From: Anaerolineales bacterium
GTDB taxonomy: Bacteria > Chloroflexota > Anaerolineae > Anaerolineales > E44-bin32
Assembly (NCBI GenBank): GCA_034430425.1
Contig: DAOUEK010000007.1
Coordinates: 1,090 to 65,089, forward strand
Direction: 5' to 3'
DNA: 64,000 nucleotides
Shown here: positions 2,580 to 61,585 of the stretch, piece by piece
Layout of the letters: every line of letters starts with the position of its first letter
Numbering within the stretch: position 1 is the stretch's first letter
Notes under the pieces: model-generated
What the model was told of the DNA's origin: nothing
The model's input: only the letters and a program-made list of their open reading frames with translations
Databases searched by the model: none
Position numbers and translations under genes: made by a program

Positions 2580-3326
2580 TCAACGATTCAACTTCGTCCC
2601 GGGGTTATCGTTTGCGAGGAGATGCATCCCGATGAGGCTGAGCAGCAGAACAAACAATCCCGCCAGCTGCATGCTGCGTAAACCACCGAGGACGATCTCG
2701 CTGTCGCCGCGAAATGCTTCCAGGAACACCCGGCTCGCGGCGGATAATGCGGCGAAGGTGAGAATCAAGAAACCTGGAAACACGGGCGCGGACTTTATTC
2801 GATGGTTAACCCAGAATACCAGCAAGGCAGCCACAATCTCATAAAGTTGCGACGGATGCCGTTCGGCGCCCCAGATATCCAGCGACCAGGGCAGCGAGGT
2901 CGGTGCGCCATAGGCATCGCCGCTGGCAAGGTGGCATAATCCGATGAAAATCGTAAACAACGCCAGGCCGGGCGTAAGCGCGTCGAGCGTCGGCCACAAG
3001 GGCAGCTCCTTGCGCTGGGCGTAGATCAATGCCGCCAGCAAACCGAAGAGCAACCCATCCCCCGGCGATAATGCATGGGCGTTGAGTGCAAGCATATCCG
3101 GCAACGTATCACGATATACGTCGAGATGGCGAAGGACGTATCCGAGCCTCGCCCCTACGATCCCACCAATCAACCCGGTCACCACCAGGTTGTTGAGCGT
3201 ATTGGCGGATAGCTCTCTCCGGTTTGCCTCTCTGTCGAGCGTGATCATCGCCAGCCAGATGCCCAAAATGAGCAGCAGACCGGGCAACGGCAGGGCAAAG
3301 GGTCCGATGTTGATGATGGGAAGCAT
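2580..3326 (-). CDS. Lgt-like (prolipoprotein diacylglyceryl transferase fold) membrane protein, catalytic motifs divergent
   Basis: N-terminal IINIGPF, GARLGYV, RHPSQLYE and RVFLEAFRGD motifs are present. The GGMSFHGG and GRLGNF motifs are degenerate. Confidence 0.75.
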   Translation of the reverse strand: MLPIINIGPFALPLPGLLLILGIWLAMITLDREANRRELSANTLNNLVVTGLIGGIVGARLGYVLRHLDVYRDTLPDMLALNAHALSPGDGLLFGLLAALIYAQRKELPLWPTLDALTPGLALFTIFIGLCHLASGDAYGAPTSLPWSLDIWGAERHPSQLYEIVAALLVFWVNHRIKSAPVFPGFLILTFAALSAASRVFLEAFRGDSEIVLGGLRSMQLAGLFVLLLSLIGMHLLANDNPGTKLNR

Positions 3327-31722: not shown

Positions 31723-34700
31723 GTGCCAGGAGATTGTCGTCCATTCCCCAGTAACGGAAGAGAGAAGGCCGAAAGCGTCCTCGTGATCGGAGGCGGCGTT
31801 GGTGGTATGCGTGCCGCCATCGATCTGGCTGAGGCCGGAATCCACACCTATTTACTCGAACATACCCCCTCGCTGGGTGGGCGCGTCTCCCAACTCGGTT
31901 TCATGTTTCCAACACACGACTGCGTACTCTGCCGGGGTACCTCCGACCATGGATTCGGTTGTACACGGCCTTCAATCACCCCCGCCTTACTGGATCAAAA
32001 CAAACACCCCAACATCACCATCCTCACTTCAACCGACCTGATCAGCTTCGAGGGGCAGGCTGGCGATTTCAGGGTGACACTTGGCGAGCGAGCGAAAATC
32101 GTCAACCCAAGCCTTTGCATAAATTGCGGTCGATGTGCCGAAGTATGCACGCAAGTCCGTCCCAGCGAATTTCAACTTGGATTGAGCACTCGCAAGACCA
32201 TCGATAAATCGGCTCCTCGCTCCCTGCCGAATGCATATTACATATTGGAGAAAAGCGACTACTGCGATGACTGCCGAAAATGCCTGGCCGTTTGTCCTAC
32301 ACAGGCTATCGATCTCGATGCTCAACCGAGAAACCACGAGATTCATGTCGGCGCAGTAATCCTGGCGATGGGATTCCAGCCCTTCGATCCATCCTCGATG
32401 CCAGAATTAGGCTACGGCCGGATTCCGAATGTGATCACTTCGATGCAGTACGAGCGCCTGGCCTCCCGTTCAGGTCCCACGGAAGGTATCGTCAGACGCA
32501 TATCGGATGGGGAAGTCCCAAAACGCATTGCCTGGCTGCAATGCATTGGCTCACGCGATCAAGTAAATCCATACTGCTCATCCATCTGCTGTATGTACGC
32601 CACCAAAGAAGCCATGCTGGCCAAACAACGCGATTCCAGCATCGACTGTCACATTTTCACAATGGATGAGCGGGCTTTTAATAAGGAATACAATCAATAC
32701 TACCGTCAAGCCCGAGATGATTTCGGCATCCATTACACACGCTGCCGCATCTCATCTATCGACGAAGACCCATCGACAGGAGAAGCCATCCTGCGCTACC
32801 CCTCTGGGCGCATGCACGGTGAATCTTCTCCCGGCCAGGGTAGAGTGCAAGAAGCGCGCTTCGATCTTATCGTCCTGGCCGTGGGTATTCGGCCTCCAAA
32901 GGGCGCCATCGATATTGCCAAGAAGCTGGGGATCGCCATCAATGAATATGGCTTCTGTGAAACAGATAAATTTTCGCCCCTGGCCACTTCCCGTCCGGGC
33001 GTTTTCGTCTGCGGTGCTTTCGCTTCCCCCAAGGAGATCGCAGAAACCATCCTGGATGCATCAGGTGCAGCGGCCGAAGCCATGCGTATCATGCACGACC
33101 ATCTCGGGGAAAATACCTTCAGTCGGGCACAGCCCTTTCTGACAACACTTGATCCAGTCCAGGAGATGGAAGCAGATCACCTCGACCCAAAGATAGGTGT
33201 CCTGCTCTGCGGGTGCGCCGGCGAAATATCACAAGTCATCGACCTGCACAAAGTCGCCGATTTCGCCAGGACGTTGCCGGCGGTGGATCAAGTCGAGATT
33301 CATCCCCTCGCCTGTCTCGAAGACGGACAGGCTCAATTGCAGCGAATGGTGACCGAAGGTAAAGTCAACCGTATCGTCATCGCAGCCTGCAGCCACCGCA
33401 TGCATGAACCGCTTTTCCAGCGACTTGCATCAGAAGCGGGGCTCAATCCCTACTGGATCGAAATCGTCAACCTGCGCGAACACTGTTCCTGGGTACATGG
33501 CAACGATCCGAAAGGCGCCACGCGCAAGGCACGCGAACTGCTCCGAATTGGTGTCGAGCGCGTTCGTCAAGCAGATACCATTCACAAATTCCAGCGCCAA
33601 CCCAACCGGGCTGCCCTGGTGATTGGCGGAGGGGTGGCGGGAATGACATCCGCTCTAGGCATCGCCGACGCAGGTTTCGAAGTGCACCTGGTGGAGAAGA
33701 GTGGTGAATTAGGCGGCAATCTACATCATATTTACTTCGTCGCCGAGAATGCCAATCCCCAACGCCTTCTGCGAGATCTGGTTAACCGCATCCTGAGCCA
33801 TAAGCGCATCACCCTCCACCTGCACAGTCAAATTGTGCATCACACCGGAAGCGTGGGCGATTTCCGCGCGCGCATTCGCACAGTTAACGGCGATGACACT
33901 TATCAAGAGAGAGAAATTCGGCACGCAGCGGTTATCGTAGCAACGGGCGGCCAGGAGGCCAATGCGGACCGTTACCTGCTTGGACAGGATCCGAGTATCC
34001 TGCGTATGTCGGAATTGGAGGAAATGCTCGCACACCAACCCGAGCGTATAACGCGTCTGAAGTCCGTGGTGCTTATCCAGTGTGTGCAGCCCAAGGGTGA
34101 AGAAGAATATTGTTCACGAATTTGTTGCACCAATACGATTAAAAATGCCTCGCGCTTGAAAATGCTCAACCCACAATGCCAGGTAATCATCCTTTACAAA
34201 AACATCATCACCTACGGATTTCGAGAAAAATACTACCTGGATGTGCGTAAAAGAGGTGTGCTCTTCGTGCGTTACACCGATGCCACTCCGCCTCGGGTCC
34301 GTCTCGAAAAGAGGAACGACGGCATGAAAACCGTCGTCGAGGTAGACGAACATATCTTCGGGCGAACGCTGGTGTTCGAACCCGACATGATTGCATTGAG
34401 TATGTCGATTCAACCCTCGGTTGGCACCAGTAAACTAGCGCAGGTGTTAGGCGTCCCCAAATCACAAGAAGGCTTCTTCCTCGAGAGCCACTTGAAGATG
34501 CGGCCTATGGAATTTTATGATGAAGGTATCTTCCTGGCCGGCATGGCACATTATCCCAAATTCATCGAGGAAACAATCACGCACGCTATGGCCTGTGTTG
34601 GAAGAGCACTGACAATTCTAAGCCGCCCCAGTATCCAATTGGGCGGTGTTGTGGCAGAGATCGACCCTCAACGTTGCACCGGCTGCCTCACCTGTGTTCG

Positions 34701-34947
34701 CACCTGCCCATTCGGCATCCCTGAAATGCGTTACGACCAATGCGGTGTAGGACAACTCGGCGGAGCGGCCTGGATCGATCCGGCTCGCTGCCATGGTTGT
34801 GGAACCTGCTCGGCGGAATGTCCGGCCCGCGCCATTCAACTCATACAATATCGCGACGAGCAAATCAATTCTGCCCTCGGACAGTGGGTGCCCGACCTGC
34901 CGGTGGGGAATGAAACACAATCCCAATCCTTGAGGCTCGAGGAGTAA
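31723..34947 (+). CDS. hdrA: HdrA-family flavoprotein with two FAD modules and ferredoxin-like domains (no NAD(P)H-binding insert)
   Basis: Two GGGVxGM FAD motifs, WLQCIGSRD..YCSSICCMYATK, VNLREHCSWVH, C-terminal CTGCLTCVRTCP and CHGCGTCSAECP. Confidence 0.9.
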   Translation: MPGDCRPFPSNGREKAESVLVIGGGVGGMRAAIDLAEAGIHTYLLEHTPSLGGRVSQLGFMFPTHDCVLCRGTSDHGFGCTRPSITPALLDQNKHPNITILTSTDLISFEGQAGDFRVTLGERAKIVNPSLCINCGRCAEVCTQVRPSEFQLGLSTRKTIDKSAPRSLPNAYYILEKSDYCDDCRKCLAVCPTQAIDLDAQPRNHEIHVGAVILAMGFQPFDPSSMPELGYGRIPNVITSMQYERLASRSGPTEGIVRRISDGEVPKRIAWLQCIGSRDQVNPYCSSICCMYATKEAMLAKQRDSSIDCHIFTMDERAFNKEYNQYYRQARDDFGIHYTRCRISSIDEDPSTGEAILRYPSGRMHGESSPGQGRVQEARFDLIVLAVGIRPPKGAIDIAKKLGIAINEYGFCETDKFSPLATSRPGVFVCGAFASPKEIAETILDASGAAAEAMRIMHDHLGENTFSRAQPFLTTLDPVQEMEADHLDPKIGVLLCGCAGEISQVIDLHKVADFARTLPAVDQVEIHPLACLEDGQAQLQRMVTEGKVNRIVIAACSHRMHEPLFQRLASEAGLNPYWIEIVNLREHCSWVHGNDPKGATRKARELLRIGVERVRQADTIHKFQRQPNRAALVIGGGVAGMTSALGIADAGFEVHLVEKSGELGGNLHHIYFVAENANPQRLLRDLVNRILSHKRITLHLHSQIVHHTGSVGDFRARIRTVNGDDTYQEREIRHAAVIVATGGQEANADRYLLGQDPSILRMSELEEMLAHQPERITRLKSVVLIQCVQPKGEEEYCSRICCTNTIKNASRLKMLNPQCQVIILYKNIITYGFREKYYLDVRKRGVLFVRYTDATPPRVRLEKRNDGMKTVVEVDEHIFGRTLVFEPDMIALSMSIQPSVGTSKLAQVLGVPKSQEGFFLESHLKMRPMEFYDEGIFLAGMAHYPKFIEETITHAMACVGRALTILSRPSIQLGGVVAEIDPQRCTGCLTCVRTCPFGIPEMRYDQCGVGQLGGAAWIDPARCHGCGTCSAECPARAIQLIQYRDEQINSALGQWVPDLPVGNETQSQSLRLEE

Positions 34948-35030
34948 AGTGAAGGATAAGCTTCGTGACTTCCCATCCCACTCTCGCCCTGTCCTTCCTC
35001 CTTCAAGGTAGAGAACATCGAGTTTGAGAA

Positions 35031-35258
35031 GTGAAAAGTGCAGACACACAACTCAGACAGCAATATCTCGTTGAGCTGGATGAAACGCTCTGCGATGGAT
35101 GTCGTAAATGCCTGCCTGTATGCAGCTTTAGGGCATTAACTTGGGTGCGCGCCGATAATGAGCTGCTGATCGACACCTGGGCGTGCACTGGATGCGGGAC
35201 CTGTCTGACAGTGTGTCCCCAAAAAGCACTTACACTTCAACCCAGAGGCTCCAAATGA
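35031..35258 (+). CDS. 2x[4Fe-4S] ferredoxin
   Basis: CDGCRKCLPVC and CTGCGTCLTVCP motifs. Confidence 0.9.
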   Translation: MKSADTQLRQQYLVELDETLCDGCRKCLPVCSFRALTWVRADNELLIDTWACTGCGTCLTVCPQKALTLQPRGSK

Positions 35259-35704
35259 CTCCTGCTGATGATTTCTCGCCCGAAATCACTGTCTTCTCAT
35301 GCATATACTGCGCATCTATGGCCGCCGATACCGCCGGCGCATTACGCCTCGAATATCCCGCCAACATAAAGATCATCCGCCTGCCCTGCACAGGCAAGAC
35401 CGACGTGCAATACCTTCTCAACGCCTTTGAAGAAGGCGCCGATGGCGTTTACATCGTTGCCTGCAGCATGGGTAACTGTCACCATGAGCGGGGCAACGAG
35501 CGTGGATACGCAAGAGTGCAACGGGCAAAGAGCCTGTTGGAACAAATCGGCATCGAACCGGAGCGGTTGGAGATGTACTTCGTTTCAGGCGGTATGGGAG
35601 CTACCTTCGCCGAGATCGCCCGGGACATGACCGAACGCATTCGTGAACTTGGTCCCAATCCACTTAAGAAGAACTCGCCTCTACCCCAAAAAGAGCAAGC
35701 CTGA
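35255..35704 (+). CDS. mvhD: MvhD-family [2Fe-2S] subunit, Cys form
   Basis: FSCIYC, RLPCTGK, GADGVYIVACSMGNCHH; ATGA overlap with the ferredoxin stop. Confidence 0.92.
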   Translation: MTPADDFSPEITVFSCIYCASMAADTAGALRLEYPANIKIIRLPCTGKTDVQYLLNAFEEGADGVYIVACSMGNCHHERGNERGYARVQRAKSLLEQIGIEPERLEMYFVSGGMGATFAEIARDMTERIRELGPNPLKKNSPLPQKEQA

Positions 35705-51000: not shown

Positions 51001-51477
51001 ATGGCCGAATTCGAGTCGCAAGTCGTCGCTTTTTGCTGCAGCCACTGCGCCTACAACGCTGCCGATCTCGCCGGCAGCCTGCGTATTCAGTACCCGGCGT
51101 CGATAAAAATCATCGAAGTGCAGTGCACCGGGCGTGTAGATATCGAACACATGCTCCATGCTTTCGAAGGCGGCGCCGACGGCGTAATGGTTGCGGGTTG
51201 AATGCCCGGCGACTGTCATTACCTGGAAGGTAATACAAACGCAAGACGACGGGTGGAATTCGCCCGCAAACTTTTGGAAGAAATCGGTCTCGAAAGCCAG
51301 CGGCTGCAGATGATCAACATATCCGCCGCCATGGCTGGCGAATTTTCCTTTGCCGCGGCAGAGATAACGGCAGAGATTCAACGTCTGGGACCCAATCCAC
51401 TACGTATCAACGGCGCCGGACAATCCGACGGTAATGCACCCGCCGTTGAGATAGCGAAAGCGGATGGCGAAAGTTGA
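51001..51477 (+). CDS. mvhD: MvhD-family subunit, selenocysteine form, copy 1 (in-frame UGA 51199-51201)
   Basis: ORFs 51001-51201 and 51202-51477 are in frame and read GADGVMVAG-UGA-MPGDCHY; UGA aligns with the Cys of the 35255 paralog. Confidence 0.93.
51214..51237 (+). other. Putative bacterial SECIS element (TGTCATTACC-TGGAA-GGTAATACA)
   Basis: Hairpin starts 12 nt after the UGA; 9-bp stem with one bulge; G-containing apical loop. Confidence 0.8.
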
Positions 51478-52657
51478 TTCCCTCAAACGCTTCGATGTTT
51501 TCGCAGAGCTTCCCGAGGATGCTCTGATGGAAATTTCGCGCCTGGCCAAACAGGAAGAACATCCTGAAGGAACGGTTCTTTTTCAGGAAGGTGCCACAGC
51601 GCATCAACTCTACCTGATATTGGATGGCAAGATCTCACTCGAGATGCTCGTGCAATTGGGCAGCACAGGCACACCCCGTCGCGCGGCGCTTAATATCGCC
51701 GGCCCAGGCAACGCCGTCGGCTGGTCGAGTATTGTCCCTCCCTATCTCTACACATCCTCCGGTGTGTGTATTGAAGATGTCAACCTGCTGACACTTCCCG
51801 GCGAAGATATACGCAGCTATATTACAGAACATCCCGACATCGGATGTGCAATTTACCAGCGTACGGCATCCTTGATCCGCGGACGAATGAGTAATGCCAC
51901 ATCGATGCTGATGTACTTCCTCTTCATCGTCTCCCATGAATTGAAACGACCCCTGGCCGCTGTGGAAAACTACCTGCAAATACTGTCCGGCGGTTATGCC
52001 GGCGAACTCAGTCCCAAACAAACCCACCTGATCGAACGTAGTACGCTGCGCATCGCCGACCTGCGCAACCTGATCAGCGACATTCTCGATTTCGCCCGCA
52101 TGCAGCCCGAGCAGATTCGCGCAGACTTCGAAAGTCTCGATCCGACTGAGCTCGGCGCCGAAGCGATCGAGGAAGTACGCTTGGCGGCGTCAGAGAAGAA
52201 CGTGCAGCTCAAAGTCATCGGGCCAACTGAATATCGGCCCATCGTCGTCGCTCGACGCCGGCTGCGGCAAGTCATCGCCAATATCCTGGCCAACGCAGTC
52301 AAGTTTTCCCCCGAGGGGAGCACCGTCACCCTAACCGCCCATGACACACCTAAAGCCCTGGTAATCGAAGTGATGGACGAGGGTATCGGCATCCCTGATG
52401 ATGAGCAGGAACACATATTCGATGATTTCTTCCGCGCCAGCAACGTGGGCGAATTCAGGGGCGCCGGCCTGGGTCTCTCCATCGCATATAAAATCATCGA
52501 AGCCCATGAGGGCTCGATCGAAGTCAAGAGCCCCTACGAAAAAGCGAAACCCGGAACCAAGTTCACCATCACCATCCCTCGGACGCTCCCTCTGCCTGGT
52601 CAGAGTAGGAAGTCTGAGCCCGGAACCCATGAGGAGAGGGGGGGATCACATGCGTGA
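51464..52657 (+). CDS. Soluble histidine kinase with N-terminal cNMP-binding (CRP-like) domain
   Basis: LFQEG...LYLILDGKISL cNMP fold; SHELKRPL; NAVKFS; DEGIGIP; GAGLGLSI. Overlaps the mvhD stop. Confidence 0.9.
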   Translation: MAKVDSLKRFDVFAELPEDALMEISRLAKQEEHPEGTVLFQEGATAHQLYLILDGKISLEMLVQLGSTGTPRRAALNIAGPGNAVGWSSIVPPYLYTSSGVCIEDVNLLTLPGEDIRSYITEHPDIGCAIYQRTASLIRGRMSNATSMLMYFLFIVSHELKRPLAAVENYLQILSGGYAGELSPKQTHLIERSTLRIADLRNLISDILDFARMQPEQIRADFESLDPTELGAEAIEEVRLAASEKNVQLKVIGPTEYRPIVVARRRLRQVIANILANAVKFSPEGSTVTLTAHDTPKALVIEVMDEGIGIPDDEQEHIFDDFFRASNVGEFRGAGLGLSIAYKIIEAHEGSIEVKSPYEKAKPGTKFTITIPRTLPLPGQSRKSEPGTHEERGGSHA

Positions 52658-53414
52658 GCAACCATATATTTTGATCGTGGACGACGATCCGGATATCGTC
52701 GAGGGGATTACCGCCGTGCTGGAAACGCGAGACTACCGCCTTGCCAGCGCTGGCGATGGCATTGCCTGCATGAAACTTATCCGGGAGAAGACCCCAGATT
52801 TATTGATCCTGGACATGATGATGCCGCGCATGGACGGTTTCGCCGTCATCCGCGAGCTTCGCGGCGATCCGAAGTATGTTGGTCTGCCCATCATTATTCT
52901 CACCACGGTCATTGAAGATGCCGCCTACCGCCGCTATGAACTTGAGACAGGGCTGGCTATGGATGTGCAAGCCTATATCGAGAAACCGGCACCGCCGGAT
53001 GTGTTGCTGCGCCACGTCACAGCGGTAGTCGATCTGCCCTATATTATTGTCGCCGATGACGACCCGGATATCGTTGCCGCGCTTACCACGGTCCTTGAAT
53101 CCAGGCCCTATCGGGTCAGCTCGGCCGCCAACGGTCAGAGCTGCATCGAACTGGTGCGCAAGCGCAAACCCGATCTACTCATCCTGGATTTACTCATGCC
53201 GCACATGGATGGTTTTGCCGTGATTCGCGAGCTGCGCAGCGAACCCCAATTTACCGATCTACCCATCATCATCCTCACTACCGTGGTTGAAGATGCCAGC
53301 CGCCGGCGTTACGAACTCGAGACGGGTCAGGACATGGCTGTTACACGATACATGCAGAAACCCGTGCCACCCAAGATGCTGCTCAAGCAAGTGAATGAGG
53401 TGTTGAAAAAATGA
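52650..53414 (+). CDS. Tandem REC-REC response regulator without output domain
   Basis: Two near-identical receivers (VDDDPDI..LLILDMMMP..EKP and ADDDPDI..LLILDLLMP..QKP); GAGG-rich RBS before ATG 52650. Confidence 0.9.
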   Translation: MREQPYILIVDDDPDIVEGITAVLETRDYRLASAGDGIACMKLIREKTPDLLILDMMMPRMDGFAVIRELRGDPKYVGLPIIILTTVIEDAAYRRYELETGLAMDVQAYIEKPAPPDVLLRHVTAVVDLPYIIVADDDPDIVAALTTVLESRPYRVSSAANGQSCIELVRKRKPDLLILDLLMPHMDGFAVIRELRSEPQFTDLPIIILTTVVEDASRRRYELETGQDMAVTRYMQKPVPPKMLLKQVNEVLKK

Positions 53415-56400
53415 GCGCGGACAAGGTCACCGGCGCAGTGATGGTCGTAGGCGGCGGTGTCGCCGGCATGCAGGCCAGTCTCGATCTGGCCGAGCAGGGA
53501 TTCCGGGTATTCCTGGTGGAAAGCCAGTCCGCCATCGGCGGTCACATGGCCAAACTGGACAAGACATTCCCCACCAACGACTGTGCCATGTGCATCATCA
53601 GCCCCAAGCTGGTTGAAACCGGTCGTCACCTCAACATCGACTTGATGGTTGACAGTGAAGTCGATAAGGTCGATGGGCAAGCGGGAGACTTCACCGTTAC
53701 CGTGCGGCGTAAACCGCGCTACATCGACATCGAGAAATGCGTTGGATGCGGAGATTGCGCTGAAGTGTGTCCGGTCGTGCTCACCGATAGGTTCAACGAA
53801 GGTTTGGCACCGCGCAAGGCGGTCTACAAACTCTATCCACAGGCGGTCCCCAATGCCTACACGATCGACAAGTTGGGCATTGCCCCTTGCCGCAACGCCT
53901 GTCCCGTCGATCAACGCGCCGAGGGTTACATCGCATTCATTGCAGAAGGCCGCTACCGCGAGGCCTACCGTGTGATCAAGGAAGACAATCCCTTCCCCAG
54001 TGTGTGTGGACGCACCTGCCATCACCCTTGCGAAGGCCACTGCGCTCGCGCCCTAGTCGACGAGCCGGTGAGCATCATGGCCCTGAAACGCTTCGTGATG
54101 GATTACGCCCTGGCCTACGGGCGCGAGAAAGTCGAACCCGTACCCCGCACACGACCGGAGTGGATCGCCGTGGTCGGTGCTGGGCCAGCCGGATTAACCG
54201 CCGCCCACGACCTGGTGAGAATGGGGTACGGCGTGACGGTCTACGAAGCGCTTCCCGTCGCCGGCGGGATGATGCGCGTCGGCATCCCCGCTCATCGTCT
54301 GCCCAAGGGCGTTTTACAGGACGACATCGACGACATCCTCGCGCTGGGCGTGGTGCTGAAAACCAACTCGCCGATTTCCGATCCCACGAAGTTGCTTAAG
54401 GAAGGTTACGACGCCGTTTGTCTGGCGACGGGGATTTCCACCCGCGATCATTCGTTGACCGTGGAAGGCGAGGACGCCGAGGGTGTACTCTCCGCAGCGA
54501 CCTTCCTGCGCAAAGTCAACCTGGGAGAACCGATCACCGTCGGCGAGCGCGTAGCTGTGATCGGCGGCGGCGTGACCGCCCTCGACGCAGCCACCGTTGC
54601 CCGACGTCTGGGCGCGGAAGAAGTTATCCTGGCCTACGACCGCCCACGCGGCGAGCTACCCGCCTACCAGTGGGAAATGGACGCCGTCGAAGCTGAAGGC
54701 ATCCGCCAGCTCGAACACACAACACTGACGCGCATCCTGACCAAAAACGACAGGGTGGTCGGTGTCGAACTGGCCCGCACCGGCCGCGGTACGACTAAAG
54801 ACAAACATGGCCGCCGACGCCCCAAGATCGAAGCCGGCAGCGAATTCACCCTCGAAGTCGATACCGTGATCGGTACCATCGGTCAGCAGTCCGACTTGAA
54901 CTACCTGCACCCTGCGTTCGAGGATCTAAACGGCGACAGCAGAACGCTGGCTTGTGAAGACGCCCCCGGATTGTTCGTCGTCGGTGGGCGCAAGACCGGC
55001 GCCAGCTTCATCGTCGAAGCCATTGCCCTGGGACATCGCGTGGCGAAATCGATTCATCATTATCTACAGGGCACATTCGACAAAATGGAAAAAATCACAC
55101 CACCGGTGGTCAAAGTCACACGCGAGGACATCGAGCGCCGCGTTAAAACGGGGGAGATCGAACTGCTGCCGCGCAACGAATCCAGGCTGCTGCACATGGA
55201 CGAGCGCGTGACAAGTTTTCGTGAAGTGGTTTTGGGGTTGACCGAACGCCAGGCGCGCGCCGAAGCCAAGCGCTGCCTGCAGTGCGGGAACTGTTCGGAA
55301 TGCCTGGCCTGCGTCTATGCTTGTGGCGCGGACGCCATCGATCACGAGATGGTCGAGACCATCCAGGATGTAAAGGTCGGCGCCATCATCCTGGCTCCCG
55401 GTTACCAGACCTATCAGGCTGAACTCTCCGCGGAATACGGTTTGGGCCGCTATCCCAATGTGATCACCGCACTGCAGCTCGAGCGTTTGCTCTCCGCCTC
55501 CGGACCGACCACAGGGCACGTAGTGCGCCCTTCGGACGGGCGCCCGGCGAAGAAAATCGCCTTCCTGCAGTGTGTCGGCTCCCGAGATCAGAATCACGAT
55601 TACTGCTCGGCCGTATGCTGCATGTACGCCACCAAGGAAGCCATTCTGGTCCGAGACCATGATCCCGAAGCCGAAGTGGATATCTTCATGATGGACATCC
55701 GCGCCTTCAGTAAAGGCTACGATGCCTATTACCAGCGTGCCCGGGAACAATTCGACATCCAGTACACCCGCTGCCGAGCATCTGAATTCAAGGAAGCCCC
55801 GGACACCAAGAACATTACGATCCGATATACAGAAGAACAAGGTGTCGGGGTTCGAAACCAGCCTGATTCCGATTTGCCCGAAACACGCATAACCGAAGCG
55901 GAATACGACCTCGTCGTGCTGTCGGTGGGCATGGAAATTTCACAATCCGTTAAAGAGCTCGGCCAGAGATTGGGCATCGAGCTCGACGACTACGGTTTTT
56001 GCAAAACGGCTTTCTTCAATCCCGTTGAAACCTCACAGCCGGGAATCTACGCTGCGGGACCTTTCCGTGAGCCTAAAGACATTCCCGAATCCGTGGTCGA
56101 CGCCAGCGGCGCAGCGGGTCAAGCTGCAACGCTGCTCGCCTCGGCTCGTGACCAACTGACACGCCAGGCCAGTTATCCGCCCGAAAAAACGGTCGGCGAA
56201 CCACGTGTAGGCGTCTTCGTTTGTCACTGCGGCTCCAACATCGCCGGTTACATGGATATCGAAGCCGTCACGGATTACGCCGCCAATCTGCCGCATGTGG
56301 TCCATGCCGACCACATGCTTTACACGTGCTCGCAGGACAGCACGGCGCAGATCCAGGCTTGCATCGTCGAACACGATTTGAACCGCGTCGTGGTGGCTTC

Positions 56401-57973
56401 CTGCACACCGCGCACGCACGGCTCGCTCTTCCGTGACGTGGTGCGTCAGGCGGGTTTGAACGAGTACCTGTTCACAATGGCCAACATCCGCAACCACTGC
56501 TCGTGGGTACACTCGCATGAACCCGATATCGCCACAGAAAAGGCGCAGGATTTAATCCGCATGTCCGTCTCCCGCGTGGTGGGCCTCGAGCCGCTGCACA
56601 CGCAGCCGGTTCCGGTGTGCCAGCAGGCGCTGGTCATCGGCGGCGGTGTGGCAGGCATGAACGCCGCGCTTGCGCTGGCAGAACAGGGTTTCCCCGTCCA
56701 CCTGGTCGAGAAAGAAAAAACCCTGGGCGGCAATTTGCGCGGGGTCTATTTCAATCATGATCCTGGTGATTCGAACGCCGGGCGCGATCCCCAGAATTAT
56801 TTACGGACGTTGATCAAAGAGATTGCAACTCATCCTGCGATAACGACGCACCTATCGAGCCAGGTGCTTCACACCACAGGCTTCGTCGGCAATTTCATCA
56901 CCATGCTGCAGAAGGAAAACGGCAGCCAGGCGGAAATCCAGCACGGTGCCACAATCGTCGCCACGGGCGGCCAGGAGTATCGCGGGGAGGAATATGGTTT
57001 TGCGGAAAGCCCGTGCGTGGTCACTGGACTGCAGTTCGAGGCTCTGTTGGCCAAAACTGGCCGCAAACGGGTGAAACTCGACGAGAAAACGAGTGCGACC
57101 TGGAAGTTGTTAGATAAAAAACCGCCGGATCAGGTGCTGATGATCCAATGCATCGGCCCGGCGGAGGAGACATGCGCCCGCACATGCTGCACCACCGCCT
57201 TGAAACAGGCTCTGCAGCTAAAAGCCCTGCATCCCGAGGCGCGCGTCGTCATGCTGCATCGCGACATGCGTACGTATGGATTCAAGGAGCGTCTTTACAA
57301 GCAGGCGCTCGAGCAAGGCGTGCTTTTCGTGCGCTACGACCCGACGCATAAACCCCAGGTATCTATCAAGGCTGACGGCCAAGTCCACGTGAACGTGCAG
57401 GATCCCGTACTCGGTACGCCGTTGAACTTCAAACCCGACTTACTCGTGCTTTCCACACCTCTCATCCCGGCGAAAGAAAATCAGACGTTGGCCACGAAGC
57501 TAAAGGTGCCCGTCGATTTGGATGGTTGGTTCCTGGAGGCGCACGTCAAACTACGGCCGGTGGATTTCTCCAACGAGGGCATTTTCCTGGCTGGGGCTGC
57601 CCACTACCCCAAACTGCTCGACGAGAGTATCGTACAAGCCCAGGCGGCCGCTTCGCGGGCTGCAACCATCCTGTCCCGCCAGACCTTAGATGCCGGCGGT
57701 TCCGTCGCCCGCGTTGATCCTGAAGCCTGCGTTGGCTGCCTGACGTGCGTGCGCATCTGCCCATATGGTGTGCCGCAGATGCAAATTAATCTTACCGGGG
57801 TTGGTGGCATCGTGGGCGCGGCCTACATCGAACCCGCTGTTTGCCAGGGATGCGGGACATGCGTTGCCGAGTGCCCCGCCTACGCCATCGAACTGCTGCA
57901 TTATCGCCACGACCAGTTGGAGGATGAGGTGGGTGCCTTATTCGAAACGAAGATTGAAGTACGTGAAGGGTGA
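53411..57973 (+). CDS. hdrA: HdrL-type large HdrA, copy 2
   Basis: Same domain order as copy 1: LDKTFPTNDCAMC, CRNACP..CGRTCHHPCEGHCAR, GAGPAGL, CSAVCCMYATK, terminal ferredoxin motifs. Confidence 0.93.
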   Translation: MSADKVTGAVMVVGGGVAGMQASLDLAEQGFRVFLVESQSAIGGHMAKLDKTFPTNDCAMCIISPKLVETGRHLNIDLMVDSEVDKVDGQAGDFTVTVRRKPRYIDIEKCVGCGDCAEVCPVVLTDRFNEGLAPRKAVYKLYPQAVPNAYTIDKLGIAPCRNACPVDQRAEGYIAFIAEGRYREAYRVIKEDNPFPSVCGRTCHHPCEGHCARALVDEPVSIMALKRFVMDYALAYGREKVEPVPRTRPEWIAVVGAGPAGLTAAHDLVRMGYGVTVYEALPVAGGMMRVGIPAHRLPKGVLQDDIDDILALGVVLKTNSPISDPTKLLKEGYDAVCLATGISTRDHSLTVEGEDAEGVLSAATFLRKVNLGEPITVGERVAVIGGGVTALDAATVARRLGAEEVILAYDRPRGELPAYQWEMDAVEAEGIRQLEHTTLTRILTKNDRVVGVELARTGRGTTKDKHGRRRPKIEAGSEFTLEVDTVIGTIGQQSDLNYLHPAFEDLNGDSRTLACEDAPGLFVVGGRKTGASFIVEAIALGHRVAKSIHHYLQGTFDKMEKITPPVVKVTREDIERRVKTGEIELLPRNESRLLHMDERVTSFREVVLGLTERQARAEAKRCLQCGNCSECLACVYACGADAIDHEMVETIQDVKVGAIILAPGYQTYQAELSAEYGLGRYPNVITALQLERLLSASGPTTGHVVRPSDGRPAKKIAFLQCVGSRDQNHDYCSAVCCMYATKEAILVRDHDPEAEVDIFMMDIRAFSKGYDAYYQRAREQFDIQYTRCRASEFKEAPDTKNITIRYTEEQGVGVRNQPDSDLPETRITEAEYDLVVLSVGMEISQSVKELGQRLGIELDDYGFCKTAFFNPVETSQPGIYAAGPFREPKDIPESVVDASGAAGQAATLLASARDQLTRQASYPPEKTVGEPRVGVFVCHCGSNIAGYMDIEAVTDYAANLPHVVHADHMLYTCSQDSTAQIQACIVEHDLNRVVVASCTPRTHGSLFRDVVRQAGLNEYLFTMANIRNHCSWVHSHEPDIATEKAQDLIRMSVSRVVGLEPLHTQPVPVCQQALVIGGGVAGMNAALALAEQGFPVHLVEKEKTLGGNLRGVYFNHDPGDSNAGRDPQNYLRTLIKEIATHPAITTHLSSQVLHTTGFVGNFITMLQKENGSQAEIQHGATIVATGGQEYRGEEYGFAESPCVVTGLQFEALLAKTGRKRVKLDEKTSATWKLLDKKPPDQVLMIQCIGPAEETCARTCCTTALKQALQLKALHPEARVVMLHRDMRTYGFKERLYKQALEQGVLFVRYDPTHKPQVSIKADGQVHVNVQDPVLGTPLNFKPDLLVLSTPLIPAKENQTLATKLKVPVDLDGWFLEAHVKLRPVDFSNEGIFLAGAAHYPKLLDESIVQAQAAASRAATILSRQTLDAGGSVARVDPEACVGCLTCVRICPYGVPQMQINLTGVGGIVGAAYIEPAVCQGCGTCVAECPAYAIELLHYRHDQLEDEVGALFETKIEVREG

Positions 57974-57981
57974 AGGCGAAA

Positions 57982-58422
57982 ATGGCCGAAAATGGAAAAG
58001 ACCTGCAGATCGTCGCCTACTGCTGCCATCATTGCGCTTACGCTGCCGCAGATCTGGCTGGTGTGTTACGCATCCAGTATCCGGCGCAGACCAAGGTCGT
58101 CGAAATTCCCTGCTCCGGACGTTTGGATGTGCTCGAGGTGCTGCATGCCTTCGAACGCGGTGCTGACGGTGTAATGGTCGCCGGTTGACTGCCCGGTGAC
58201 TGTCATTACCTGGAAGGTAATGTTAACGCCAAACGTCGCGTGGAGAAACTCAAACAACTATTGGACTCGATCGGGCTGGAACCCGAGCGCGTGGAGATGT
58301 TCAATCTCTCCTCGGCAATGGCTGCACAATTCGCCGAAACGGTGAGGAACATGGTAGCGCAGATTCAAAGTGTTGGCCCGAGTCCCTTGCGGCTCGCTGC
58401 TGAGGGAATAACCGAACCATAA
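57982..58422 (+). CDS. mvhD: MvhD-family subunit, selenocysteine form, copy 2 (in-frame UGA 58186-58188)
   Basis: YCCHHCAY..IPCSGR..GADGVMVAG-UGA-LPGDCHYLEGN continues in frame into ORF 58240-58422. Confidence 0.93.
58201..58225 (+). other. Putative bacterial SECIS element (TGTCATTACC-TGGAA-GGTAATGTTA)
   Basis: 7-bp perfect stem CATTACC/GGTAATG; 21 nt identical to copy 1; same 12-nt offset from the UGA. Confidence 0.8.
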
Positions 58423-58485
58423 AATTATTGGTAACAGGATTCCGGATACAATCAATACCCATCCGGTATTCAAGGAGAGCGAAGT

Positions 58486-59172
58486 ATGATCATTGCAGAA
58501 CAAAAACCACTGGAGGAGATCAAGGCTTTGATCGCGGATGCCGAAAATGTATTGGTCGTTGGCTGCGGCACCTGCGTGACGGTATGCTTTGCCGGCGGGG
58601 AGAAGGAGGCCGGCATCCTGGCCAGCAGCCTGCGCATGTCGACCAAACTCGACGGCGGCCCCAAAGCTGTGGAGCATGTTACCGTGCAGCGCCAGTGCGA
58701 ATGGGAGTATATCGACCCCATCGGGGATCGTGTCGCTGAGGCAGATATGGTGCTTTCGATTGGATGCGGTATCGGTGTGCAGGCGCTCGCCGAACGCTTC
58801 CCGGATGCCATTGTCGTTCCCGGGTTAAATACCTCCTTCTTGGGCTTGCCTACGGAACAAGGTGTTTGGGAAGAACGCTGCGCCGCTTGCGGCGAGTGCA
58901 TCCTCGGATTGACGGGTGGAATCTGCCCCATTGCTCGCTGCGCCAAACAGCTGCTCAATGGACCTTGCGGCGGGTCGCAAAACGGTGTTTGTGAAATCGA
59001 CCCGGATACGCCCTGCGCCTGGCAGTTGATCTACGACAAACTGAAATCACAAAATCGTCTGCACCTGCTGACGGAAATTCAAGCGCCGAAGAACTGGTCC
59101 AGCAGCCGCGACGGCGGTCCTCGAAAAATCACCCGTCAGGATTTACGTCTGGCGGCGGAAGAATCTGAGTAG
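58486..59172 (+). CDS. metV: Methylene-THF reductase Fe-S/Zn subunit MetV
   Basis: GCGTCVTVC, RQCE, CGIGVQ, CAACGECIL..GICPIARCAKQLLNGPCGG..CE..CAW. Confidence 0.93.
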   Translation: MIIAEQKPLEEIKALIADAENVLVVGCGTCVTVCFAGGEKEAGILASSLRMSTKLDGGPKAVEHVTVQRQCEWEYIDPIGDRVAEADMVLSIGCGIGVQALAERFPDAIVVPGLNTSFLGLPTEQGVWEERCAACGECILGLTGGICPIARCAKQLLNGPCGGSQNGVCEIDPDTPCAWQLIYDKLKSQNRLHLLTEIQAPKNWSSSRDGGPRKITRQDLRLAAEESE

Positions 59173-59190
59173 GCGAAAAGGAGCGAAGCC

Positions 59191-60180
59191 ATGACAAAAA
59201 CATCGAGCAATGGATACAAATCCGGCTCTCGCCTGGAACGCCTGCTGCGCACCGGCGAATTCGTGGTCACCGGCGAGTTGGGCCCGCCGCAGGGTGCTGG
59301 CGGGGACGTCATCCGTGAGAAAGCTGTCCTGTTAAAAGGCGTAGTCGATGCGGTAAATATCACCGATAATCAGACTGCCATCGTACGCATGTCCTCGATT
59401 GGCGCCGGTACGATCACCGTGCAGGAGGGTGTGGAACCGATCATCCAGATGACCTGCCGCGACCGCAACCGTCTGGCGATCCAATCCGATCTACTGGGCG
59501 CCTACGCCCTGGGCATGCGCAACGTGCTCTGCCTGACCGGCGATCACCAATCCTTCGGCAACCACCCTACCGCCAAGAACGTCCATGATCTGGACTCGGT
59601 GACGTTGATCCAGATGGTAGTGAAGATGCGAGATGAAGGCAAGTTTGAATGTGGAGATGAAATGAAAGGGATCGAACCGCGCTTCTTCGTCGGCGCAGCG
59701 GCCAATCCCTTCGGCGATCCTTTCGAATTCCGCCCACTCCGTCTGGCAAAGAAAGTCGCCGCCGGCGTGGATTTCATCCAGACACAGTTGATCTACAACA
59801 TCGAACGCTTCGCCGAATACATGCAGAAAGTGCGCGAACTCGGCCTGCACGAGAAGGTATACATTTTGGCCGGCTTGGGTCCGCTGAAGTCTCCGGGCAT
59901 GGCGCGTTACATGCGCGATCAGGTGCCGGGCCTGGACGTACCCGATATCTACGTCGACCGCATGATCGAAGCCGCCAAGGGCATCGATAAAGAAGACAAG
60001 AAAGCCCGTTCCCAGGCCTGGCGTGAGGAAGGCATGAAAATCACCATCGAGCAGATCAAGCAGATGCGCGAGATCGAAGGCGTCGCCGGTGTGCACGTGA
60101 TGGCAATTGAATGGGAAGAGGCAGTCAAACCGATCGTCGAGGGCGCCGGATTGCTGCCGCGTCCGGAACCGGCGGCGTAA
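59191..60180 (+). CDS. metF: Methylenetetrahydrofolate reductase MetF
   Basis: ELGPP, NITDNQ, QMTCRDRNRLAIQSDLLGA, LTGDH, KKVAAGVDFIQTQ. Confidence 0.95.
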   Translation: MTKTSSNGYKSGSRLERLLRTGEFVVTGELGPPQGAGGDVIREKAVLLKGVVDAVNITDNQTAIVRMSSIGAGTITVQEGVEPIIQMTCRDRNRLAIQSDLLGAYALGMRNVLCLTGDHQSFGNHPTAKNVHDLDSVTLIQMVVKMRDEGKFECGDEMKGIEPRFFVGAAANPFGDPFEFRPLRLAKKVAAGVDFIQTQLIYNIERFAEYMQKVRELGLHEKVYILAGLGPLKSPGMARYMRDQVPGLDVPDIYVDRMIEAAKGIDKEDKKARSQAWREEGMKITIEQIKQMREIEGVAGVHVMAIEWEEAVKPIVEGAGLLPRPEPAA

Positions 60181-60190
60181 GGAGATGTCT

Positions 60191-61585
60191 ATGGAGACAA
60201 AACTCAGCACCGATCTGGCCGAACGCATCCGGGAAGCCACCGGTGAGAACGTGTTCCTCTGTTATCACTGCGTGAAGTGCACCTCCGGTTGCCCCCTGAT
60301 GGAGCATTTCGACCTGGCGCCCAACCAGGTGATGCGCGCCGCTCAGTTGGGTATGGAAGACATGATCTTCGAGAGCAAATCGCCCTGGCTGTGCGCCTCC
60401 TGCCAGACCTGCACCACTCGCTGCCCGCAGGGCATCGACATCGCCCGTGTGATGGACTTTATCGTCGGCGAGGCGATGGCCAAAGGCATCAAACCCAAGG
60501 TGCCCGAAGTCGCCCTGTTTAACAAGGTCTTTTTACGCGACATCGACATACTGGGCCGCTCCTACGAGCTGGGGTTGATGGTCGAGATGAACATACGCAC
60601 CAGGCAGCCCTTCAAGGACGTCGGCCTGGGGCTAGACATGATCAAGCACGGCAAGATCGCCTTCCTGCCCTCCGTGATCCGCAAACGCAAGCCGAAGGCG
60701 GAAAAACCACCTCCAGAACGGGAGTCTAAAGAGGTTGGTTATTATCCCGGCTGTTCGTTACATTCCTTGGCCAGGGAGTTTAACCTCTCGGCATTGGCGA
60801 CGCTGGAAGCGCTCGATCGCAAGCCCGTGGAGCCGAAAAACTGGATTTGCTGCGGTTCTTCGCCCGCCCACCGCGTGGACCACGAGCTTGCGGTGCAGAT
60901 GCCGCTCGAAAGCCTGGCACTTTATGAAATGGAAGGCGTTAGCGAGGTTACCCTGCCCTGCGCCATGTGCTTCAACCGCTTCAGGGCCGCGGCGAGAGAA
61001 GTGCGCCTCGATCCCGAATTGAAACAGGAAATGGACCAGGAGTTGGGCTATGCGTATCAAGACAGCCTGGCGATATCATCGCTGCTGGATTACGTCGTCG
61101 AGAACATTGGCCTGGAAGCCGTAGCCGAGAAGGTCAAAAAGCCGCTCGCAGGGTTGAAAATTGCCTGCTATTACGGCTGCCTGCTAACCCGTCCACCCGA
61201 AATCACCGGATCGAAAGAACCGGAATACCCCATGTCCATGGACCGTTTGATGAAGGCGCTGGGGGCAGAGCCAATCGACTGGGACCGTAAAGTGTCCTGC
61301 TGCGGCGCGTCCCTGTCCCTTACGGCGACCGGCATCGTACTCGAAATGAGCGCTGATATCATCGAAAACGCACACGCCCGCGGCGCCGATCTCGTGGCCG
61401 TGGCCTGCCCGATGTGCCACGCCAATATCGACGGACGCCAGGTACAAATGGACATCACACAACCGGTCCCGGCGCTGTATTTTACCCAGCTGATGGCCCT
61501 GGCCTTCGGCATGCCGGAGGAAGCTGCGTTGAAATTCAACATGGTTGATGCGCGACCACTGCTGAAGGAACGAGGTTTCCTATAG
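60191..61585 (+). CDS. Fused HdrC-HdrB heterodisulfide-reductase-like subunit
   Basis: HdrC motifs CYHCVKCTSGCP and CASCQTCTTRCP, followed by two CCG domains (YYPGC..CCG..CAMC; YYGC..CCG..CPMC). AAGGAG RBS. Confidence 0.92.
   Translation: METKLSTDLAERIREATGENVFLCYHCVKCTSGCPLMEHFDLAPNQVMRAAQLGMEDMIFESKSPWLCASCQTCTTRCPQGIDIARVMDFIVGEAMAKGIKPKVPEVALFNKVFLRDIDILGRSYELGLMVEMNIRTRQPFKDVGLGLDMIKHGKIAFLPSVIRKRKPKAEKPPPERESKEVGYYPGCSLHSLAREFNLSALATLEALDRKPVEPKNWICCGSSPAHRVDHELAVQMPLESLALYEMEGVSEVTLPCAMCFNRFRAAAREVRLDPELKQEMDQELGYAYQDSLAISSLLDYVVENIGLEAVAEKVKKPLAGLKIACYYGCLLTRPPEITGSKEPEYPMSMDRLMKALGAEPIDWDRKVSCCGASLSLTATGIVLEMSADIIENAHARGADLVAVACPMCHANIDGRQVQMDITQPVPALYFTQLMALAFGMPEEAALKFNMVDARPLLKERGFL

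Follow-up and report, generated by a model that had tools for sequence, protein, structure and literature searches.

Introduction

FrhD/MvhD has been recognised as a bacterial selenoprotein family since 2004-2006 and is often multi-copy. Regarding the RNA signals for selenocysteine (Sec), the minimal SECIS of E. coli fdhF is made of an 11-nt spacer, a bulged U and a GGUC-type loop, and archaeal SECIS elements are found in the untranslated region, not in the coding sequence. In 2006 FrhD/MvhD was the third most numerous bacterial selenoprotein family, with Sec/Cys conversions in both directions; eight Sec FrhD copies were counted in Syntrophobacter fumaroxidans, four in Syntrophus aciditrophicus, two in Desulfotomaculum reducens and one in Moorella thermoacetica, which also has a Sec HdrA (PMC1794560). 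A bacterial SECIS is described as a stable stem-loop with a small apical loop carrying a conserved G (PMC1088965), and the SECIS elements of different bacterial genes may bear no mutual resemblance (PMC12013277).

VhuD/MvhD is an experimentally verified selenoprotein with two Sec residues, one in a CxxU motif and one at the site aligned with residue U69 of the protein examined here (PMC13188914), and the [2Fe-2S] cluster of MvhD/VhuD feeds the HdrA flavin (PMC13518236). According to a 2026 review, Sec-containing [NiFeSe] hydrogenase subunits, MvhD/VhuD included, are confined to 'sulfate-reducing and methanogenic microorganisms' (PMC13188914). The text of the BSepDB paper mentions neither the FrhD/MvhD family nor Anaerolineae. 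Regarding these hosts, Sec-specific elongation factors and a Sec-type FdhA have been reported from Anaerolineales single-cell genomes (PMC4959059), and the passages of Sewell et al. 2017 (PMC5736913) that were consulted describe a marine Anaerolineae hdrABC-mvhD-metVF cluster whose FlpD has four conserved cysteines; these passages make no mention of selenocysteine in MvhD.

The locus described here lies in a 64-kb stretch of Anaerolineales DNA, the whole of which is referred to as the window. Like the FrhD/MvhD selenoproteins of Deltaproteobacteria and Clostridia (COG1908, PF02662), it has a UGA in place of a conserved Cys, an in-frame SECIS, an adjacent hdrA and several Sec copies, and the Moorella FrhD comes from a genome with the same hdrABC-mvhD-metFV cluster type. 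Unlike these, the host belongs to Chloroflexota/Anaerolineae and the HdrA partner is a fusion of 1520-1540 aa which is not a selenoprotein. A second Sec-mvhD with a SECIS is thus expected biology, the family, the mechanism and genomes with multi-copy Sec-MvhD being established, and the finding opens no new question. What it adds is modest, namely the Anaerolineae host and a near-invariant family hairpin with clean covariation and no Rfam model.

Results and discussion

Two mvhD genes with an in-frame UGA

The coordinates of the features are collected in Table 1.

Table 1. Features of the window discussed in the text.
Feature	Position	Strand	Description
mvhD copy 1	51001..51477	+	158 residues, predicted Sec at residue 67, TGA 51199-51201; PF02662 E = 6.5e-48
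mvhD copy 2	57982..58422	+	146-residue FlpD/MvhD protein, predicted selenocysteine at residue 69
UGA predicted to be read as selenocysteine	58186..58188	+	aligns with Cys (TGC/TGT) in 22 Cys-type homologues
Predicted SECIS hairpin, copy 2	58205..58221	+	stem 58205-58211/58215-58221, triloop GGA 58212-58214
Predicted SECIS hairpin, copy 1	51218..51234	+	7-bp stem and GGA triloop, as in copy 2
Third mvhD paralogue, Cys-type	35255..35704	+	PF02662 E = 1e-43; motif VACSMGNCHHERGN
Giant HdrA-like flavoprotein, 1520 aa	53411..57973	+	directly upstream of mvhD copy 2; Pfam Pyr_redox_2, Fer4_20, NAD_binding_8, Fer4
Paralogous giant HdrA-like flavoprotein, up to 1540 aa	46257..50879	+	upstream of mvhD copy 1; Pfam
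metV, methylene-THF reductase small subunit	58486..59172	+	PF12225, E = 7.8e-38
metF, methylene-THF reductase	59191..60180	+	PF02219, E = 1.8e-36
HdrC/HdrB-like fusion, 4Fe-4S dicluster and CCG domains	60107..61585	+	PF02754, Fer4_17

The reading frame of mvhD copy 2 runs from the ATG at 57982 to the TAA at 58420-58422 and holds a single in-frame TGA, codon 69. PF02662 matches the protein over its full length (profile positions 1-123 of 123, E = 2.4e-49) across this TGA, in agreement with the original prediction of a second selenocysteine mvhD at this site, and the PDB MvhD/VhuD chains match both Sec-type window proteins with E-values of 1e-30 to 1e-36. The TGA is aligned with the conserved Cys in the VAG[U/C]xxGxCH motif of MvhD homologues, and the aligned position in the solved archaeal VhuD chain 9sfi_K is occupied by a non-standard residue, 'X'. 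Judged from its sequence, 57982-58422 is very probably a second selenocysteine-type mvhD coding for a [2Fe-2S] electron-transfer subunit of the MvhD/FrhD type, in which the UGA would be decoded as Sec. [quoted passage not shown] Unlike VhuD with its two Sec, mvhD copy 2 has a Cys (C18) at the first of these sites, as does copy 1; the partner of VhuD is a [NiFeSe] hydrogenase.

The same TGA could also be a genuine stop, in which case the gene would be split into pieces of ~68 and 60-78 residues or be a pseudogene. Indeed, TGA is the commonest stop in the window, where it ends 20 of the 40 ORFs, so the codon is not reassigned in this genome, and automatic callers do divide the same gene in a JGI metagenome sequence (Ga0315534_1117828; L203, 434-874) into FlpD fragments of 68 aa and 60 aa. 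Against a stop, 166 distinct genes have a conserved open frame before as well as after the TGA, the TGA is always aligned with the conserved Cys, neither a start codon nor a ribosome-binding site is conserved past it, the fixed synonymous sites described below are unexpected of a pseudogene, and FlpD/MvhD is a known selenoprotein family. A true stop is hence extremely unlikely. Given that callers split such genes at the TGA, the MvhD of Anaerolineae Hdr-MetFV clusters is under-annotated and the selenium dependence of the Wood-Ljungdahl pathway is missed. Further in-frame TGAs flanked by open frame were looked for in the window by a crude scan, which returned only frame artefacts and ordinary stops, the two mvhD genes being the only convincing cases. 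No selA, selB, selC or selD was found within the 64-kb window by a tRNA search, which returned no tRNA at all, and a Pfam profile search; this says little on the Sec machinery because the window is only a small part of the genome.

The proteins encoded by copy 1 and copy 2 are 61% identical. The window contains the 21-mer TGTCATTACCTGGAAGGTAAT at two places only, 51214-51234 and 58201-58221, with none expected in 100 shuffles, and each occurrence begins 12 nt past an in-frame TGA (51199-51201 and 58186-58188). The identity of these 21 nt at the same offset had been pointed out beforehand; in the codon alignment the identical run is in fact 24 nt long, as the preceding GAC is shared too, and the flanks differ as had been described (ATG CCC GGC versus CTG CCC GGT; ACA versus GTT). 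It had further been stated that five of the seven codons end in A or T inside GC3-rich genes. The codon count is correct, but the richness was overstated, GC3 being 0.59 in both genes and 0.64 over the 40 window ORFs. The codons for D-C-H-Y-L-E-G-N are identical between the copies at 8 of 8 positions, compared to 29 of 66 for the other same-residue degenerate codons (Fisher p = 0.0026). Under the codon usage of the window, the chance of CAT-TAC-CTG-x-GGT-AAT given H-Y-L-x-G-N is ~0.01 per gene.

The nearest public relatives are Anaerolineales/Chloroflexota MAGs. In the Anaerolineales MAG W31_54 both paralogues are present on one contig, 7 kb apart, each with its TGA and hairpin; copy 1 is 93% identical to its orthologue in L053 and copy 2 is 85% identical to its TGA-containing orthologue L001 (MAG W31_54). 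Since each paralogue has an orthologue with TGA and hairpin in this MAG, the duplication is old and neither TGA is a sequencing error. The argument that two UGAs with a conserved hairpin speak against such an error is thereby borne out by another Anaerolineales genome which keeps both. Two Sec-type mvhD genes are also present on the contigs L153, L171, L111 and L154, and in L043 with L047, hence tandem Sec-MvhD modules are common.

A hairpin downstream of the UGA

Counting the U of the UGA as 1, nt 20-26 (AUUACCU) of the mvhD hairpin pair with nt 30-36 (AGGUAAU) and leave nt 27-29 as the loop. In both copies the hairpin starts 16 nt after the UGA, within the coding sequence, and an eighth pair, C58204-G58222, is possible in copy 2 only. 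RNAfold gives -7.8 kcal/mol and z = -2.7 for a 25-mer of copy 2, and the range over both copies is -7.1 to -7.8 kcal/mol with z = -2.2 to -2.7. The functional core comprises 17-18 nt, CAUUACCUGGAAGGUAAU. A SECIS core of 21 nt had been proposed; its hairpin part holds, but the TGT included in it does not belong to the core, as TGC and TGT vary freely at this place in homologues. When RNAalifold was applied to 150 sequences, the 7-bp hairpin alone was retained.

Two further structures predicted for copy 2, a lower stem including the UGA and a CCGG...CCGG hairpin with the UGA in its loop, were rejected, both being absent in L-E-G-D-type genes. In L/M-P-G-D-type genes the UGA can indeed fall within the loop of a small CCGG...CCGG hairpin (window positions 58176-58201 and 51194-51208); given that it is missing from L-E-G-D-type genes, it is probably a by-product of Gly and Pro codons.

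The mvhD hairpin differs from the textbook SECIS of E. coli fdhF and Moorella fdhA by its perfect 7-bp stem with no bulged U, its GGA triloop and its 16-nt spacer. On contigs related to the window, the fdhA SECIS (GUGGCAG-GUC-UUGCCGC) looks much closer to the fdhF type than the mvhD hairpin does. The loop of the mvhD hairpin starts at nt 27 from the U of the UGA, which is 26 on a 0-based scale and falls in the range of 22-30 nt (0-based) at which the loops of candidate hdrA and fdhA SECIS elements start on those contigs. Its 3-nt loop with a conserved G corresponds to the small apical loop described for bacterial SECIS elements (PMC1088965).

Conservation in UGA-type and Cys-type mvhD genes

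A sample of 80 loci from reference genomes supplied 60 distinct TGA-type genes, the window copies included, and 21 Cys-type genes. Metagenomes were scanned with a pattern in which V-A-G-TGA-x-x-G-D/E-C-H was fixed and the hairpin was left unspecified, and the pooled set from public genomes and metagenomes contains 166 distinct TGA-type and 22 Cys-type mvhD genes.

In all 60 TGA-type genes of the reference-genome sample the codons at +6, +7, +8, +10 and +11 are CAT, TAC, CTG, GGT and AAT respectively, and conserved neighbours in the same genes mix their codons, Cys+5 being TGC in 35 and TGT in 25, and Gly+3 and Ala+14 using four codons each. A stem with the canonical 6-bp core can be drawn for 162 of the 166 TGA-type genes versus 3 of the 22 Cys-type genes. 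Among these three, the canonical sequence itself is found in L012 only. The seventh pair, which closes the stem, is variable. The Cys-type genes mostly read H-F-Q-x-G-N and not H-Y-L-E-G-N, and their codons are CAC 14 / CAT 7, AAC 13 / AAT 8 and mostly GGC in the 21 reference-genome genes (CAC 14 / CAT 8, AAC 13 / AAT 9 and mostly GGC for the 22 pooled). The third mvhD of the window, which is of the Cys type, serves as an internal control: it has no hairpin, its codons are CAC CAT GAG CGG GGC AAC and its fold gives z = -0.1.

The hairpin, which the original prediction took to be a SECIS, is thus conserved and confined largely to UGA-type genes, and it covaries as described in the next section. 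From these sequence patterns it qualifies as a bacterial SECIS, to which SelB would be expected to bind.

A few genes depart from this picture. In L012 (JBDRTP010000334.1), at about position 971, a Cys-type (TGC) mvhD keeps the hairpin CATTACTTGGAAGGTAAT, in which one C>T change has produced a G-U pair; its appearance is that of a relic SECIS from a recent Sec-to-Cys conversion. Three genes from metagenome contigs (L110, L123 and L187) with the motif H-P-G-x-C-H-Y-x-S-G-N carry a different stem, GCCACUA/UAGUGGC, located 2-3 nt further upstream, and their loops are UGU, UUC or UGG, that of L123 having no G. On the + strand of L174, at position 3263, a Sec-type mvhD (HYLTGN; CATTACCTGACAGGCAAC) lacks both the canonical and the alternative stem, and RNAfold predicts a larger composite hairpin of -23.2 kcal/mol.

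Covariation and synonymous-site constraint

In all 15 of the 15 TGA-type genes that have Phe (TTC) in place of Tyr (TAC) in the motif, GGA takes the place of GGT as the pairing Gly codon, and GGT is present in all 148 Tyr-type genes with the canonical hairpin, so that the rule linking Tyr/Phe to GGT/GGA holds in 163 of 163 cases overall. Among Phe-type Cys homologues only 1 of 15 has GGA, compared to 15 of 15 Phe-type TGA genes (p = 2e-7). At the closing pair 26:30, 105 sequences have U-A, 8 have U-G and 15 have A-U; of the 17 sequences with A at nt 26, 15 have U at nt 30. In an alignment of 46 sequences 96.6% of the cells pair, none of 500 shuffles reaches the covariation score and slid controls are all far worse. 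Double changes affect two of the seven stem pairs and the other five never vary, hence the support for those five is synonymous-site constraint and not covariation. The loop nucleotide G27 is invariant in 150 of 150 sequences although it is the four-fold degenerate third base of the Leu codon CUG.

Conservation of amino acids combined with codon bias, or a recent gene conversion, might also produce an identity of 21-24 nt having no RNA function. Indeed, no protein motif of the family is more conserved than D-C-H-Y-L-E-G-N, and the residues H-Y-L-x-G-N by themselves already dictate three of the six core stem pairs. The other three core pairs form only if the His, Gly and Asn codons end in U, and these third positions are exactly the fixed sites. 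Cys-type homologues keep the C-H-x-x-x-G-N residues with the mixed codons counted above, the Cys-type mvhD of the window itself uses CAC, GGC and AAC, and the chance under window codon usage is as low as stated. Moreover, the switch from GGT to GGA happens exactly where Tyr becomes Phe, and 37 of the 66 other synonymous sites are not the same in the two copies, each of which has an orthologue of its own, so gene conversion is not needed. The comparison of Sec-type with Cys-type genes has already refuted this explanation, the probability of which is negligible. As the hairpin lies in coding sequence and uses the codons of H-Y-L-E-G-N, it fixes the third positions of CAU, GGU and AAU and restricts the amino acids. 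It also shows neatly, in natural genes, how a signal in the RNA can constrain a motif of the protein.

Read-through of the UGA independently of SelB, in which the hairpin would act as a generic stimulator and Trp, Cys or Arg would be inserted, has also to be weighed. In 149 of the 166 TGA-type genes the UGA is followed by a C, and UGA-C is a weak termination context. Yet the C is present in 19 of the 22 Cys-type genes as well, and it is not a special adaptation given that the next codon is Leu CTG and that Cys-type genes share it. Recognition by a protein would fit the invariance of the loop G and the constant spacing, Sec agrees with the non-standard residue present in the model of the solved VhuD at the corresponding position, and Anaerolineales single-cell genomes do contain Sec elongation factors and a Sec-type FdhA (PMC4959059). 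Such read-through is very unlikely, and SelB-dependent insertion of Sec is the reading retained in what follows.

Distribution of the hairpin and covariance model scans

The hairpin had been proposed to be a lineage-specific SECIS. This does not hold, since 162 of the 166 TGA-type mvhD genes, which come from many different environments and from several phyla, contain the 18-nt core. It is found in mvhD genes under the labels Chloroflexota, Acidobacteriota and Thermodesulfobacteriota, and also on numerous metagenome contigs that belong to no bin. The hairpin is a property of the mvhD gene family and not of a lineage. Together with the Tyr/Phe-GGU/GGA covariation, the fixed 18-nt core offers a very specific tag to rescue Sec-type mvhD genes. 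One bacterial-type Sec-mvhD with an in-frame SECIS is found on a contig (L061, JAIWHF010000006.1; coverage 0.34) binned as 'Methanosarcinales archaeon', which is probably a mis-binned bacterial contig, and the same doubt applies to L070 (Kiloniellaceae).

A covariance model was built from 46 diverse mvhD hairpins. In the window it scores 75.5 bits on copy 2 and 67.3 bits on copy 1, everything else remaining at or below 9.3 bits, and on eight related contigs it matched no hdrA or fdhA SECIS and found further mvhD copies only. The expectation that such a model would lead to other selenoproteins was therefore not confirmed, mvhD alone being returned from the window and these contigs. The stem is formed by the very codons that specify the MvhD motif H-Y/F-L/Q-x-G-N. 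Sec-type hdrA (LDKTFPTNDCAM-U-I) and fdhA (CARL-U-HSS) genes on the related contigs each have a hairpin of their own, namely CUGGUCG-AGGU-CGGCCGG, GGAUGUC-GGUC-GACAUCC and GUGGCAG-GUC-UUGCCGC, the last one being that of fdhA. Matches limited to mvhD agree with the dissimilarity of bacterial SECIS elements noted in PMC12013277. The HdrA-like genes of the window have no in-frame TGA. Candidates for Sec hdrA (DCAM-U-I) are observed beside mvhD on L094, L100, L111, L146, L154, L187 and L195, and candidates for Sec fdhA (CARL-U-HSS) on L154, L165 and L182.

Rfam searches gave nothing at gathering thresholds over the whole window and nothing at E <= 10 around the UGA site. We tentatively consider that the mvhD hairpin may represent a SECIS class of its own, near-invariant across the family, with a perfect 7-bp stem, a G-first triloop and a 16-nt spacer, welded to C-H-Y-(L/Q)-x-G-N and carried across Chloroflexota, Thermodesulfobacteriota and Acidobacteriota, a proposal that we judge somewhat short of an even chance. 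Sec-MvhD would then be a regular part of the MetFV-Hdr modules of the Anaerolineae Wood-Ljungdahl pathway, outside sulfate reducers and methanogens.

Genomic neighbourhood and proposed mechanism

Each of the three mvhD genes in the window directly follows an HdrA-like gene. The third pair (31723-35704) consists of a gene for a 1074-aa HdrA-like protein (31723-34947) followed by the Cys-type mvhD, so that one locus holds three hdrA-mvhD modules, two of the Sec type and one of the Cys type. The 1520-aa HdrA-like protein has a GltD/NfnB-like module (Fer4_20 and Pyr_redox_2) ahead of its HdrA-like FAD modules, as well as ferredoxin domains, and the GltD/NfnB-like addition is shared by its paralogue upstream of mvhD copy 1. 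From 53411 to 61585 the gene order is HdrA-like, MvhD, MetV, MetF and Fer4+CCG fusion, and this is a Moorella-type hdrA-mvhD-metV-metF-hdrCB cluster, a variant by the size and the domain order of its HdrA. The true start of the HdrC/HdrB-like fusion probably lies downstream of 60180.

In the proposed mechanism, as a ribosome reaches the UGA at 58186-58188, the mRNA 16 nt downstream would be folded into the 7-bp hairpin with its GGA triloop. The complex SelB·GTP·Sec-tRNA(Sec) would bind this hairpin, with the invariant first G of the loop as the likely contact, and SelB would deliver selenocysteine in place of termination by release factor 2. The resulting MvhD would be the partner of the giant HdrA-like flavoprotein encoded upstream, its U69 presumably ligating the [2Fe-2S] cluster, near which the Sec may play its role.

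The locus shares with the marine Anaerolineae cluster of Sewell et al. 2017 (PMC5736913) the gene set, the phylum, a nearby two-component system and a link to the Wood-Ljungdahl pathway; in that study, a two-component system adjoins metF in Anaerolineae DscP3. [quoted passage not shown] The stretch between the two Sec-type hdrA-mvhD modules, 51464-53414, encodes a histidine kinase that carries a cyclic-nucleotide-binding domain, together with a response regulator that has two receiver domains.
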